50,823 nucleotides of DNA from an uncultured Aquificales bacterium (lineage in GTDB: Bacteria > Thermosulfidibacterota > Thermosulfidibacteria > Thermosulfidibacterales > Thermosulfidibacteraceae): positions 1-50,823 of the forward strand of contig CAYVOC010000005.1 in assembly GCA_964453345.1 (NCBI GenBank), in the 5' to 3' direction. A model generated the notes under the pieces. The model was not told where the DNA came from and searched no databases. It saw only the letters and a list, made by a program, of their open reading frames with translations. Of the stretch, positions 35,739 through 40,709 are shown in pieces (the stretch's first letter is position 1; every line of letters begins with the position of its first letter). The position numbers and the translations under genes were made by a program.

Positions 35739-38348
35739 TTAAATGCCGAGCATTTCCCTCAAGAATCTTGAGGGCTTTTCCTCAAAGCGGGTGTATTTGG
35801 AGGAAAATCGATAATAGGTAATGAAGAGCTTTTCGGTGGCCCTTGTTATGGCTGTGTAGCAGAGGCGTCTTTCCTCTTCCATCTCCTCTTCCACTCCCAT
35901 TGCCCTGGAAAGCGGGAACTCCCCCTCCACCATTCCCACCAGAAAGACAACCGGGAATTCCAGTCCCTTTGCTGCGTGAACTGAGAGCAGTCTTACCCCC
36001 TCGTCCTCCTCCGCAAGCCCCGAGTCTATCAGGAATCTCAGGTAATTCAGGAAGCTCTGAATGCTACCGGTTCGGCTCCGCTCTTCGAAGTCCTTTGCCT
36101 GTTTAAAAAGCTCCTCAATGGAGTTTAACCTTACCAGTCCCTCTTCCGTATTCCTCACTTCAGGGGATCTGCCAAGATAGTGTATTAAAAGGGATAACAC
36201 TTCGGAGGGCCTCGTGTATTCTCTCACCGACTCTATGAGGTTGCCGAACTCGGGGTTGGTGTCCGCTTCGGGAGTGGTCATGCCGAGTATGTAGGATCTG
36301 TTTTTCAGCCTTTTGAGTATTCCGGGGCCTCCAGTGGCTGCGTATTTCAGAAGATCCATGGCGAAGAGCACCTCTTCCCTCTTGTAGAAGCTTTTTCCAA
36401 ACTGGAAGGAGTAAGGAACCCTTCTTTTCTTGAACACCTGTTCAAAGAGCCTTCCTCTGGTGTTGGTCCTGTATAGGACGCAAAAGTCGCTGTAGCTGTA
36501 TCCTTCCTTGAGCCTGAGTATGTCTATGATGTCGCATACAAAGTCGGCTTCTTCCTGGGGAGTGTTTAGTGCCCTCACATCTATGTAGAATCTGTCCCCC
36601 TCTCTTCTGGTCCAGAAGAGCTTAGGCATGCGTTTTTTGTTAAATTGAATGAGGTTGAAGGCGGCGTCCCTTATCTCCTTGGGGAGTCTGAAGCTTTGGG
36701 TGAGCTTATACACCTTGAAGTCTTCCCTGTTCTTAAGCTGCCAGAGGTAGTCCGGGCGTCCTCCCCTCCACTGGTATATGGATTGATCGTCGTCTCCGGT
36801 CACGAAGAGCCTTTTCCCCTTCCCGAGGCTTTCAAGGATGTATATCTGGGCGGTGTTCAGGTCCTGGGCTTCATCTATCAACAGATGATCAAGCCTTTCC
36901 CTATAGAACTCTGCTGCCTCCGGAAATTCCTTGAACAGCATGGCGCAGTAGTAGATGAGATCATCGTAGTCCAAGGCCCTTTCCTCTATGATGGTCCTTT
37001 GATAGGTGTCCCAGAAGGCGTTTAAGAGATCCCTCCACCTTCCGGTTGCGCTTTCAAGCATCTGCTCTTTGCTCAGAAGCCCTGCCCTGGCCCTGTGAAA
37101 TCTGTTCAGAAGGTCCTTCACCACGGGTTCCGGAGCGCTGAAGCTTTCCGTCAGTCTTCTGGCTATCTTCTGGGCTAAGTGCCTTCTCTGGGATGGCGGA
37201 ACAATGCTGAAATCCTCCGGCAACCCTAACAGGTGGCCGAATCTGCTCAGTATCCTCAGGGCTATCTGGTGAAAGTTGCCTATCCAGGTCTCTTCCGCTT
37301 TGCCGCCCACGTATTTTGCAAGGCGTGATTCTATCTCCTTGTATCCCCTTATGCTGAAGGTTGTGATGAGGATCCGGGAGGGTGAAACCCCTTCCTTTAT
37401 GAGCGAAACCGCCCTTGCTATGAGGGAGTGGGTTTTACCGGTTCCCGGTCCCCCTATCAGAAGCACGTTCTTTGATTTTTCAAATACCGCTTCTTTTTGC
37501 TCTTCCGTGAGTTCCGACAGGATCTCAGGTTCCTTAGTTTTATGCGTCTTTGCAATTAGCGGTTTTATCCTTTGTCTGTCCAGTTTTATGGCATTCAGGA
37601 AGTCTCTGCATGAGGCGAAGCGCTCTTGGGGATCGGGGGATAGGGCTTTCTCTATAGCTATTTTCAATCTATCGTCGATATCGGCGCAGGACGGGACTTC
37701 CACGGGGTTATTTATTTTTCTTATCAACTCTTCCAGGGTCTCCGCCCTGTAGGGGTGAACTCCTATTAGCATTTCATATAACATGGCCCCACAGCTCCAT
37801 TGATCTGATAGATGGCTGAAGTTGCCCTTCCATGCCTCTGGAGCCATGTATAGTGGGGTTCCTCCCATGCTCATGGAAAGGTCGTTCTGGAAGATTTTAG
37901 CGAGACCAAAATCGAGAATTTTTATTATTCCTTCATTTGTCACTATAATGTTCTCCGGCTTCAGGTCCCTGTGGACCACTCCCCTTCTATGTGCAAAGTC
38001 AATGGCGTCCAGAATCTGTTCCATGTAGAAGATAGCCCTTTCGGTGCTTAGGGGTGCTTCCCTGTCTATAATTTTTCTCAATTGGGTTCCTTCGACAAAC
38101 TCCATAACGATGATCAATCTGTTCTCCACAAGGTCGACGGTATAGAAACGAACAATGTTGGGGTGATCCAGTTCAGACAGGACCCTTGCCTCTTCCAAGA
38201 GAGGATCTAAATTGCTGGGGGAAACCCTGATGATCTTTACGGCAAAATCTTTTTTAAGGAGGGTGTCTTCGGCAAGGTATACGTCCCCGAATCTCCCTCC
38301 CCCGATCCACTTCTTGAGAAGGAACCTTCCGAGTTTCAGACCTGTCAT
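35739..38348 (-). CDS. Fusion of Hanks-type Ser/Thr protein kinase and UvrD/PcrA-like SF1A helicase
   Basis: Kinase: GGGRFGDVY, AVK, HRDLKPEN, DFG, GTPLYMAPE, SDQWS. Helicase from ~aa 279: LTEEQ, GGPGTGKT, IDEAQD, GDDDQSIYQWRG, LYRTN, HAAKGLEF, EERRLCYTAITRA, PSRFL. Confidence 0.93.
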   Translation of the reverse strand: MTGLKLGRFLLKKWIGGGRFGDVYLAEDTLLKKDFAVKIIRVSPSNLDPLLEEARVLSELDHPNIVRFYTVDLVENRLIIVMEFVEGTQLRKIIDREAPLSTERAIFYMEQILDAIDFAHRRGVVHRDLKPENIIVTNEGIIKILDFGLAKIFQNDLSMSMGGTPLYMAPEAWKGNFSHLSDQWSCGAMLYEMLIGVHPYRAETLEELIRKINNPVEVPSCADIDDRLKIAIEKALSPDPQERFASCRDFLNAIKLDRQRIKPLIAKTHKTKEPEILSELTEEQKEAVFEKSKNVLLIGGPGTGKTHSLIARAVSLIKEGVSPSRILITTFSIRGYKEIESRLAKYVGGKAEETWIGNFHQIALRILSRFGHLLGLPEDFSIVPPSQRRHLAQKIARRLTESFSAPEPVVKDLLNRFHRARAGLLSKEQMLESATGRWRDLLNAFWDTYQRTIIEERALDYDDLIYYCAMLFKEFPEAAEFYRERLDHLLIDEAQDLNTAQIYILESLGKGKRLFVTGDDDQSIYQWRGGRPDYLWQLKNREDFKVYKLTQSFRLPKEIRDAAFNLIQFNKKRMPKLFWTRREGDRFYIDVRALNTPQEEADFVCDIIDILRLKEGYSYSDFCVLYRTNTRGRLFEQVFKKRRVPYSFQFGKSFYKREEVLFAMDLLKYAATGGPGILKRLKNRSYILGMTTPEADTNPEFGNLIESVREYTRPSEVLSLLIHYLGRSPEVRNTEEGLVRLNSIEELFKQAKDFEERSRTGSIQSFLNYLRFLIDSGLAEEDEGVRLLSVHAAKGLEFPVVFLVGMVEGEFPLSRAMGVEEEMEEERRLCYTAITRATEKLFITYYRFSSKYTRFEEKPSRFLREMLGI

Positions 38349-39193
38349 TTGGCGGGAAAGAAGGTGGCATGAATGGTGTCGTCTTCGAACCTGTATCTTT
38401 TGCCCTTCACGGTTTCGGCTGAGACGATTTCGTGTCTTCCGTGCTTCATTTCCTTAAGCTGAACGGTTTCTGCGCTTTCTATCTGCTTCCAGATCCTGTT
38501 GATCTTTTTGAGATCAAGGCTGTAGCTTCTGCCCCTCATTCTGTCTTCAAGGGCGTCAAGGGCGTATCCCTTTATCAGCTTATCTTTCAAGCCCCTGAAG
38601 AGGGATCTGGTGTTGAATATATCGCAGCACAAAAATCCCCTGTTGGAGAAGGCCATTACGCCCACGGCCTCCTCTTCGGGTTCCCACCCCTGGTAGATTT
38701 CAAGATCCCTTTCCCTCTCCACAAAGCTGTGGTGCATGGACATGGTTTTTGAGGATACCCTGAGGGTTTTGAGCTTTGTCTCTATGAGGCTCCACACCTT
38801 TTCCTGTATGGCCTTGCCTTCAAAGGTCAATGTTTTTCTCAAACGGGGAAAGGCTGTGAACCCCGTTGAAAAGGGGGTGTCCCCTTCCCACCTGTTCTTC
38901 TCTATGCAGACCACGGGAAGCTCGAACTCTTCCCCTTTCTCCACCACGGTTGAGAAGAGGGCCATCCTGTCCTGCCTTTCCCCTATCAGCTCCTCGCCGT
39001 CCATTACAAATAGAAGTTCTTCTGTAGAGTTTTCTACAATCACCCTCTCTATGCTTCCCGTTTCCCTTAAAGAGGCGCCCTTGGACAGGCCCTCTTCCAA
39101 GGTTATGGTCTCTATGCACCCGTCGTCCCCCAGCACGGGAACGATGAGCATGTTGCCCAAAAGAACCGGTCTTCCAAGCTCAAGCCGCCTCAT
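38345..39193 (-). CDS. ARPP-1 / DUF6569-like protein
   Basis: Pattern TLEEGL..E.G.I..V.VEN..LFVMDGEELIG..QDR..LPVVCIE..RW..Q..VW..DIF..KL..GYALDA matches my recollection of that family; not confirmed by search. Confidence 0.7.
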   Translation of the reverse strand: MRRLELGRPVLLGNMLIVPVLGDDGCIETITLEEGLSKGASLRETGSIERVIVENSTEELLFVMDGEELIGERQDRMALFSTVVEKGEEFELPVVCIEKNRWEGDTPFSTGFTAFPRLRKTLTFEGKAIQEKVWSLIETKLKTLRVSSKTMSMHHSFVERERDLEIYQGWEPEEEAVGVMAFSNRGFLCCDIFNTRSLFRGLKDKLIKGYALDALEDRMRGRSYSLDLKKINRIWKQIESAETVQLKEMKHGRHEIVSAETVKGKRYRFEDDTIHATFFPAK

Positions 39194-40011: not shown

Positions 40012-40709
40012 CGCAGCTCCTCCAGAGCCTCGGGAAGTGCTTCCCAGTGGTCAATGTTTATGTGGGCCTTTTCAACGGGAGATTTTCCAGGCTTTATGTA
40101 GAACCCGCTCCAGAACCCTGCTCTCAAGGCCCCTGCCACATCGGCTTCGGGATCGTCCCCTATGTGTATGAGCCTTGAGGGGGGTATCCCCAGCCTGTAG
40201 GATGTCCACAGGAATATGTCTCTTCTTGGTTTTCTCACTCCGAGTCTGCACGATAGCGCTTTAACATCAAAGTAGTGGTCCATTTCGTATTCCCTGAGTA
40301 GCTCCTCCTCTATGGTTCCGTGTATGGTGTTTGAGATTATGGCGAGCTTATAGCCTTTGTTCTTGAGGATTTCTAAGGCCTCTTTTGCTCCCGGATTGGG
40401 TCCTGGAAAGTGCTTCTTTATGGCGTCTACAAAGATTCTCTGGCATTCCGGAAGCAGTTTTAAAGGGGCGTTCATCCTTTTTAGAAAGAGTTTCATGAGG
40501 TCTTCCACGCAGAACTCAAAGCCTGTCTTTTCCCTCCACTGGGTCATCTCCAGAACCACATTGGTGTAAGTCTCGTCCACCTCTTCCAGAGGCCTGTTCA
40601 GAAGTTCTGAGAGCATTCTGGATCTTTCCCATCTCACATTTTTCAGCTCCTCCTGACTCACAAATCCAAAAAGGCTTTCCCAGAAGTCGAAGCATATTCC
40701 CTCTATCAT
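40008..40709 (-). CDS. HAD-superfamily hydrolase
   Basis: Motif I FDFWESL, II ISNT, III RKP, IV HIGDDPEADVAGA. Confidence 0.88.
   Translation of the reverse strand: MIEGICFDFWESLFGFVSQEELKNVRWERSRMLSELLNRPLEEVDETYTNVVLEMTQWREKTGFEFCVEDLMKLFLKRMNAPLKLLPECQRIFVDAIKKHFPGPNPGAKEALEILKNKGYKLAIISNTIHGTIEEELLREYEMDHYFDVKALSCRLGVRKPRRDIFLWTSYRLGIPPSRLIHIGDDPEADVAGALRAGFWSGFYIKPGKSPVEKAHINIDHWEALPEALEELR

Follow-up and report, generated by a model that had tools for sequence, protein, structure and literature searches.

The stretch analyzed here, referred to below as the window, comprises 50,823 nucleotides of an uncultured Aquificales bacterium (assembly GCA_964453345.1, contig CAYVOC010000005.1), in which four consecutive minus-strand genes code for a HAD-superfamily hydrolase, an exonuclease with a WYL domain, a protein of the ARPP-1 family and a fusion of a protein kinase with a UvrD-type helicase (Table 1). 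An earlier note on this DNA had taken the four for a candidate nucleic-acid surveillance and defense module. Comparison across genomes separates the region into two independent units, namely the HAD hydrolase with the exonuclease, and ARPP-1 with the kinase-UvrD fusion. The latter two form a real, strongly co-inherited and well-supported conserved unit that is as yet unstudied, whereas a four-gene defense module is not supported. The domain assignments on which the earlier note had built (Pkinase with UvrD, ARPP-1, RNase_T with WYL, and HAD) were all recovered with Pfam.

In the fusion, a Pkinase domain (residues 12-245, nucleotides 37614-38315; 189.6 bits against a cut-off of 31.7) precedes a helicase part of the superfamily 1A (SF1A) UvrD/PcrA type that spans residues 280-846 (nucleotides 35811-37511), with Pfam matches to UvrD-helicase (residues 280-540, 194 bits) and UvrD_C (144 bits). 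An alignment of 14 fusions, which are 34-50% identical to the window protein, has K38, E53, H126-R127-D128, N133 and D146-F147-G148 as invariant kinase residues; these include the catalytic lysine, the HRD aspartate, the asparagine and the DFG aspartate that, along with the Pkinase match, characterize the Hanks-type Ser/Thr kinases. Invariant in the helicase part of the same proteins are the Walker A residues G299..K305-T306, then D492/Q495/D496, G518-D519-D521-Q522, E824-R828 and T835-R836-A837, so that Walker A, DExQ and the other motifs accompany the two UvrD domains as in the SF1A UvrD/PcrA/Rep superfamily. At the level of sequence, both enzymes of the fusion thus retain every catalytic motif. 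The protein is the sole true Hanks kinase of its genome (1.5 Mb, 99.9% complete), which also codes for a separate, better-scoring canonical UvrD/PcrA on contig C15 and, elsewhere, for a PP2C-type protein. The best 120 matches in the protein collection are all full-length Pkinase-UvrD proteins (830-909 residues, 34-72% identity), giving a family of at least 120 full-length members that are named, if at all, only as UvrD-helicase domain proteins; among these 120 the carriers include Thermosulfidibacter, Aminicenantia, Hydrothermota, WOR-3 and Planctomycetes. A scan of metagenome contigs with generic kinase motifs gave one locus (L097) that spans both domains among the 80 loci in the matches listed.

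The association of the fusion with ARPP-1 is seen first in a sample of 401 genomes, in which the fusion was scored at E<=1e-120, a threshold that yields lower bounds, since one genome of the sample (G162) scores 1.5e-115. The fusion is present in at least 16 of these genomes and ARPP-1 in 46, and every one of the 16 fusion genomes carries ARPP-1. Within the order of the window's organism, each of the 12 fusion genomes has the two genes side by side. Outside it, the fusion occurs in four genomes, all of which fall among the 34 of 383 with ARPP-1; the pair is adjacent in G018 and G041, and its members lie on different contigs in G049 and G316. A second phylum, that of G316, was covered with 121 genomes (phylum-level searches centered on G018 and G041 returned the center genome alone). 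Here the fusion is found in 29 genomes and in three more just under the threshold (32/121), and ARPP-1 in 44; of the 32 fusion genomes, G514 alone, which is 75% complete, is without ARPP-1 (31/32). The pair is adjacent in 9 of these 31 genomes, with ARPP-1 upstream of the fusion in seven (G401, G416, G465, G474, G495, G513, G475) and downstream in two (G441, G451), and in the other 22 they lie either on separate contigs or 63 kb or more from each other. In all, adjacency extends over four phylum-level groups and 10 families, with both gene orders. All sampled members of the window's family (8/8), of f291 (5/5) and of f294 (3/3) carry the pair, in single copy; the two sister families of the order have it in 0/3 and 3/6 genomes. 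The families in which it is fixed have genomes of 1.2-2.7 Mb, and its flanks vary from lineage to lineage: MiaB-like and BFN genes in a sister family, a TPR gene in G018, prolyl-tRNA synthetase and sulfatase genes in G041, and rhomboid and DnaN genes in G316. The earlier note had proposed to look whether its three core genes recur together in distant genomes; the three do not, and two of them, ARPP-1 and the kinase-UvrD fusion, do.

Two further observations concern the pair in the sister family. A Cys-rich open reading frame of about 160-185 residues, with several CxxC-type motifs and no Pfam match, overlaps the start of ARPP-1 there (Table 1). It was considered as a third conserved component and discarded, having no counterpart beside the pair elsewhere. 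In three sister-family genomes the contig ends less than 1 kb upstream of ARPP-1, and the last 200 bases of one of these contigs (L020, 10085-10284) contain short direct repeats, which suggests an assembly-breaking repeat.

The association extends to the phylogeny of ARPP-1. We built a tree of 67 sequences, of which 16 are adjacent to a fusion, 14 are unlinked in fusion genomes, 18 come from genomes scored negative, two are second copies in fusion genomes and two are from genomes of uncertain status; the rest are 15 of 35 remote loci, those with a clean full-length open reading frame in the first Pfam batch. The remote scan used one peptide pattern from a 7-sequence alignment, so that its 51 loci are a biased sample, and the Pfam scan took in the first 150 of the 244 open reading frames that neighbor remote ARPP-1 loci. 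A single branch (SH-aLRT 97) divides the tree into sides of 34 and 33 rows. All 34 rows of the first side come from fusion-bearing genomes, and this side holds every adjacent and every unlinked partner, including those of G475 (adjacent) and of G431, G437 and the genome of L054 (unlinked), in which the fusion was found on re-check. The 33-row side consists of 11 rows from 10 genomes without a match spanning kinase and helicase at E<=1e-30, five rows whose genomes are negative at 1e-120 only, 14 whose genome status is untested and three (L204, L206, L207) that are second copies in fusion genomes. The fusion thus goes with one dedicated ARPP-1 subfamily, and is essentially never seen without a member of it, even when the two genes are apart. 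Ser152 is present in 34/34 of the partner ARPP-1s, against 76% Ala and 3% Ser in the other half of the tree, and this subfamily-specific invariance makes it a candidate phospho-acceptor.

Other contexts of ARPP-1 seen in these data include WYL transcription factors or WYL-WCX regulators (L049, L051, L057), an ARG glycohydrolase-phosphatase (DSP) fusion two genes downstream of ARPP-1 (L052:5640-7217, plus strand) and an ARPP-1 fused to a DSP-type phosphatase domain (L060:7380-8924, plus strand). The contexts in L052 and L060 are those behind the name of the family, and they echo a kinase/phosphatase theme around ARPP-1. In the Capsulimonadaceae, a 1155-residue protein that combines an IrrE/M78 peptidase, UvrD and a PD-(D/E)XK nuclease (L041:2181-5648 and L043:2066-5533, both minus strand) is encoded some 2.5 kb away from an ARPP-1 that belongs to the other subfamily.

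All domains of the region are known ones, and ARPP-1 is a named but uncharacterized family. The window protein matches its profile nearly end to end (PF20208, 190.9 bits against a cut-off of 27; residues 4-279 on profile positions 2-297 of 297). Invariant in 41 ARPP-1 sequences are G66, Q74, R76, C96, E98, R101, W102, R119, Q130 and W134, and in each half of the set of 67 sequences C96 and Q74 are conserved to at least 90%; these two correspond to the absolutely conserved cysteine and glutamine by which the family is described (PMC9503650, section 3.8). According to that section the family was defined from predicted conflict systems. The paper further proposes that its members act on sugar moieties, possibly via a covalent link to the cysteine, and describes neighborhoods with HIRAN, a WYL transcription factor, a deacetylase and ARG systems (PMC9503650). 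An AlphaFold2 model (predicted local distance difference test, pLDDT, 95.1; predicted template-modeling score, pTM, 0.92) has a predicted beta-rich N-terminal part that bears Q74, R76, C96, E98, R101 and W102, followed by helices and a terminal four-stranded meander, and in this form it agrees with the published description of the family as given there (PMC9503650). When the whole fold was searched, the best Foldseek match had an E-value of 0.012 and the best VIA-align match a Z of 6.0 over 42 residues, limited to the C-terminal meander; the N-terminal 118 residues by themselves (model pLDDT 83) gave a best Z of 4.3 and a best E of 0.2. These searches returned no solved relative of the fold beyond generic beta-meanders or sandwiches, and name or exclude no family; a look-up in the ESM Atlas gave no usable match, and no model of this protein is present there.

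A complex was modeled between ARPP-1 and residues 1-545 of the fusion, that is, the kinase with the 1A/1B half of the helicase, the 2A/2B half lying outside the construct. It scored 0.52 (runs 0.55, 0.52 and 0.51), against 0.00 for the best of three controls; any two runs share 76% or more of their contacts, and partner pLDDT is at least 84. The mark used is reached by 58 of 80 solved complexes and by 2 of 110 mismatched pairs, and at scores of 0.60 or less by only 7 of the 80 solved complexes and by both of the passing mismatches. Given the strong genomic prior, we count the predicted complex, itself weakly supported, as mild support for direct binding of ARPP-1 to the fusion.

We lean toward reading the pair as a chromosomal device for DNA surveillance or repair signaling rather than as a mobile anti-phage system, since it is fixed family-wide in single copy in small genomes, lies in housekeeping surroundings and is frequently unlinked. 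In such a device, the UvrD motor would track 3'-5' along single-stranded DNA and bring the kinase along. ARPP-1, predicted to be an enzyme or a sensor and marked by the invariant Cys96/Gln74/Arg76/Glu98/Arg101-Trp102 cluster, would dock on the kinase/1A-1B half of the fusion and mark or process an abnormal sugar-linked DNA structure, upon which the kinase would phosphorylate ARPP-1 (with Ser152 as the candidate site), itself or a downstream target, thereby switching a response. In its most far-reaching form, which we offer as speculation and think rather unlikely as a whole, the pair would be an ancient and undescribed DNA-tracking phospho-signaling machine: an SF1A motor would carry a eukaryote-like kinase, ARPP-1 would be at once a covalent (Cys96) sensor of abnormal sugar-linked DNA (abasic, ADP-ribosylated or similar), the docking partner and the Ser152 substrate, and the signal would couple the detection of lesions or foreign DNA to a response in several deep-branching phyla, including WOR-3-like lineages and vent thermophiles.

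Several points weigh against this account. The substrate, the lesion and the phospho-target of the pair are all ones that we infer. The predicted fold of ARPP-1, having no solved relative, gives no functional hint, and the score of the modeled complex lies in a range in which a pass, without a high prior, is wrong more often than right. As relatives are not independent, the co-occurrence counts exaggerate how many separate events there were. The other ARPP-1 contexts are predicted conflict systems according to the section cited above (PMC9503650), and the pair is patchy at higher rank (0/3, 3/6 and 32/121), which together would fit an accessory and possibly defensive role. Finally, every genome of the window's family that was seen has the exonuclease in one translational chain with ARPP-1 and the fusion, so that a lineage-specific collaboration is conceivable.

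Foremost among the alternatives is a two-gene anti-phage or anti-plasmid defense that became fixed in some lineages, in which ARPP-1 would sense or modify foreign nucleic acid or ADP-ribosylated DNA, the helicase would unwind it and the kinase would trigger an abortive or protective phospho-response. It has a minor yet appreciable probability in our estimation, as befits a family defined from predicted conflict systems (PMC9503650, section 3.8), a fusion whose kinase and helicase halves match the PADLOC models PD-T4-6, mad6 and GajB at the domain level, and a pair that is patchily distributed between sister families and moves as a unit between chromosomal contexts. Set against this, in the window no known defense gene lies beside the pair and no companion of the named systems is found, nor is there evidence of a defense island or of mobile DNA. 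Its neighbors, as identified with NCBIfam, are reverse gyrase, IspG, QueE, CheR, AmiC, RibF and PurC, that is, housekeeping surroundings, and the canonical UvrD/PcrA and the PP2C-type gene are kept elsewhere in the genome. The pair is found in single copy throughout the sampled members of several families, and its two genes are separated in 22/31 genomes of the second phylum, the latter being unusual for a defense system. On viral contigs, the patterns used gave 73 candidate stretches, none of them an ARPP-1 relative, and the best 80 kinase matches there include no fusion. The PADLOC matches themselves are generic, the NCBIfam score for MAD6 being 155 bits against a cut-off of 460.

The remaining alternatives turn on the exonuclease and the HAD protein. 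The former combines RNase_T (residues 9-163, 128.5 bits) with WYL (PF13280, residues 209-271, 50.8 bits against 21.8). With D12, E14, D96, H150 and D155 in its translation and a score of 115.6 against 71.5 for TIGR00573, it is a predicted DnaQ-like DEDDh enzyme; it misses the cut-off for the proteobacterial Pol III epsilon subunit (TIGR01406, 98.6 against 222.7 bits). It is the only PF00929 match and the only WYL match of its genome, and hence the sole DnaQ-family enzyme there, and it occurs once per genome in all three families of the order (8/8, 3/3 and 6/6 genomes, or 17/17 relatives). Being the only DnaQ-family gene in so complete a genome and single-copy across the order, it may act as the proofreader of replication or as an exonuclease of general repair. 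Its distribution is independent of the pair: all six relatives in the order that lack ARPP-1 and the kinase-UvrD fusion have it, it lies on a different contig from the pair in three sister-family genomes that have both, and G018 and G041, which lie outside the order, carry the pair but not this exonuclease. In the window's family, one genus has kept the pair and lost the WYL domain. Another family has the exonuclease in an IF2-DUF503-RbfA-DHH-exonuclease-SpoU context. Full-length DEDDh-WYL relatives are also seen in two unrelated families, beside CinA in G023 and beside a RecN-like gene in G036.

The HAD protein (PF00702, 66.5 bits against 26.4) has the HAD fold and reaches no NCBIfam equivalog cut-off. 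Its motif I reads D-F-W-E-S/T in the window and in eight orthologues (L022-L025, L027, L081, L085, L088), so that the second aspartate of the phosphatase motif DxDx(T/V) is a conserved tryptophan in 9/9 sequences. The possible phosphatase of the earlier note thus stands as to its fold and is in doubt as to its activity: with a non-canonical motif I the label is uncertain, and ordinary phosphatase chemistry may not apply. In one sister-family genus (L081, L085, L088) the HAD gene adjoins the exonuclease gene with no ARPP-1 next door. The two are therefore resident housekeeping-type genes, single-copy across the order, and not parts of a system with the other two. A role of the HAD protein as the cognate phosphatase of the kinase was set aside, in view of the PP2C-type gene elsewhere and the atypical motif I. 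In G316, a different type of HAD (Hydrolase_6/NagD-like; L094:7557-8342, plus strand) is encoded directly upstream of the kinase-UvrD gene, a second, independent HAD neighbor of the fusion that may be due to chance.

In mismatch repair, helicases of the UvrD type act together with exonucleases that digest single strands, and the resident exonuclease might accordingly have been coupled to an incoming pair, in the window's family only, in a form of excision-type repair. This recruitment would be compatible with a chromosomal surveillance or repair-signaling device, and the family has retained the translational chaining of the genes even in the genus without the WYL domain; we nevertheless hold it to be improbable, because the exonuclease and the pair show no co-variation outside one vertically related family, where their adjacency is indistinguishable from inherited synteny. 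Still less credit can be given to a single surveillance system of HAD, exonuclease-WYL, ARPP-1 and fusion, with WYL as the sensor and the DEDDh domain as the effector nuclease. It draws on the chain of 4-base overlaps through all four genes, whose minus-strand junctions (TTGA, ATGA and ATGA) lie precisely where the earlier note had read them, and on a HAD-exonuclease-ARPP-1-fusion order kept in all family relatives with enough contig. Yet the family keeps the whole order PurC-RibF-AmiC-HDOD-CheR-HAD-exonuclease-ARPP-1-fusion, which marks it as synteny by descent, uninformative on function. Likewise, the HDOD/CheR junction next upstream (41521-41524) has the same 4-base overlap and the CheR/HAD junction a one-base overlap, so that such overlaps point to probable co-transcription rather than to a module; they are no more than chance expectation here and weigh little. 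The earlier note had itself cautioned that overlaps were common and that the four genes were the tail of a mixed operon, and rightly so: 35.7-50.6 kb is a single minus-strand run of about 15 kb that also holds CheW/CheY, ApgM, PurC, RibF, AmiC, HDOD and CheR, with the chained genes as its tail. The distribution of the exonuclease-WYL gene, found with and without the pair, and that of the HAD gene, which goes with the exonuclease, already contradict a four-gene system, and the missing second aspartate of the HAD motif I also speaks against it; sensing by WYL followed by degradation by the nuclease is no conserved part of the system, WYL being lost in one pair-keeping genus and the exonuclease unlinked elsewhere. 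That ARPP-1 and the kinase-UvrD fusion are mere neighbors by chance in a compact genome rich in overlaps is scarcely credible, being already contradicted by the 16/16 and 31/32 co-occurrence, the adjacency in four phylum-level groups in both orders and the dedicated ARPP-1 clade.

The chained genes end close to a predicted dif site, as the earlier note had said, 151 bp past the kinase-UvrD stop. In this site, which we take to be like the canonical dif sequence, a short spacer separates two inverted arms. It occurs once in the 1.5-Mb genome when three mismatches are allowed, and coincides with the change of GC-skew sign between the 34-36 kb and 36-38 kb bins, as expected of a single-copy site at the terminus. 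It is kept with one to three mismatches downstream of the orthologous gene in four distinct family relatives, and no such site is found at up to five mismatches at the pair loci scanned in other lineages (L019, L020, L021, L026, L092, L094). The adjacency of the pair to dif is thus confined to one family, and we read it as the pair having simply ended up there at the end of a mixed operon.

Table 1. Features of the region, with position, strand, basis and role or remark; positions are those of the window unless a locus is named
Kinase-UvrD fusion	35739..38348	-	Open reading frame and Pfam; 869 residues	Core component 1
ARPP-1 family protein	38345..39193	-	Open reading frame and Pfam; 282 residues	Core component 2
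DEDDh (DnaQ-like) 3'-5' exonuclease-WYL	39190..40011	-	Open reading frame and Pfam; 273 residues, TTG start	Neighbor, outside the conserved unit
HAD-superfamily hydrolase (subfamily IA-like)	40008..40709	-	Open reading frame and Pfam; 233 residues	Neighbor, pairs with the exonuclease
dif-like chromosome dimer resolution site (predicted)	35564..35590	.	Sequence, GC skew, uniqueness, conservation	
Reverse gyrase	28923-32405	+	TIGR01054, 1222 bits	3 kb from the terminus
Cys-rich open reading frame, sister family	L021:10104-10661; L026:6495-6974	-; -		Copies 54% identical

The reverse gyrase gene marks the source organism as a thermophile or hyperthermophile. Farther along the minus-strand run, the longest HDOD open reading frame (41521-42582, minus strand) overlaps that of the AmiC-like amidase (42393-43670, minus strand) by 190 bases, and relatives of the HDOD protein align only from residue 55-68 onward in most loci; the true HDOD start is hence probably further downstream. 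A scan for promoters and terminators did not rise above background (8 where 8.0 were expected, and 18 where the expectation was 13.1 +/- 4.0). The region is present in eight DNA runs from five studies, hydrothermal vent metagenomes where labeled, and no RNA run is listed as containing it.

If our reading is true, a kinase attached to a processive DNA motor, and accompanied by an obligate partner whose fold is unknown, would constitute a new bacterial route from a DNA-level event to a phosphorylation signal. The fusion family is found mostly in uncultured lineages and very small genomes, in which retained genes tend to matter. The ARPP-1 family, in turn, gains its first tightly defined partner along with a set of residues (Cys96, Gln74, Ser152) to consider. 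The link of WYL and exonuclease to the pair is a clean negative result, and annotators of these genomes should avoid calling the four genes a defense system.

Among known systems, those of defense were compared with PADLOC on seven genes (35739-43670), which gave single-domain matches only (GajB, PD-T4-6, mad6, DEDDh and WYL) and none for ARPP-1 or HAD; the earlier note had expected no full system. The Hanks kinase domain matches the models of PD-T4-6, MAD6 of MADS and PglW of BREX/Pgl over the kinase domain, and Stk2 is another of these kinase-based defense proteins. Unlike in those systems, the matches here reflect the generic kinase fold only and come without companion genes, and none of those proteins carries a UvrD helicase. 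The PD-T4-6 model, essentially a Hanks kinase domain itself, scores 214 bits, and its stand-alone kinase differs from a helicase fusion with an obligate ARPP-1 partner. The match to MAD6 remains below the equivalog cut-off given above and is limited to the kinase part, the PADLOC mad6 match covering positions 51-338 of 659. As for BREX type 2/Pgl, PglW scores 89 against 990 bits, and the only PglX-like match, a marginal one at E 0.0028, is the HDOD protein. As in Gabija (GajA with GajB), the helicase half matches GajB models (283 bits); unlike in Gabija, the seven genes have no match to GajA, the OLD-type ATPase-TOPRIM nuclease, and the helicase is joined to a kinase and has ARPP-1 as its partner.

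With the SF1A helicases PcrA, UvrD and Rep the fusion shares the PF00580-PF13361 architecture and all helicase motifs, and PcrA is its best NCBIfam match; it misses the equivalog cut-offs of all three by a wide margin (PcrA 395 against 911, UvrD 292 against 1144, Rep 308 against 951). It differs from PcrA and UvrD in its N-terminal, active-looking kinase, and the canonical UvrD/PcrA is separate in the same genome. ARPP-1 may be likened, by an analogy drawn in PMC9503650, to the abasic-site sensors SRAP/HMCES/YedK, on account of the invariant cysteine and the covalent chemistry on a sugar proposed in that paper; the likeness is one of analogy only, with no sequence or fold similarity found and a cysteine that is internal (C96). 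Our literature searches returned no paper on the kinase-UvrD fusion and mentioned ARPP only in PMC9503650, whose main text has no occurrence of 'UvrD', while its supplements with neighborhood data might list the context. The window protein shares with the ARPP-1 of that description the PF20208 match, the invariant Cys and Gln, and the predicted beta-meanders with a beta-rich insert that bears conserved residues. It departs from the contexts described there (PMC9503650) in that WYL here, which shows no conservation with ARPP-1, is a domain of a neighboring exonuclease instead of belonging to a transcription factor; its partner is a Hanks kinase-UvrD fusion, and it belongs to a clade of its own, marked by Ser152.

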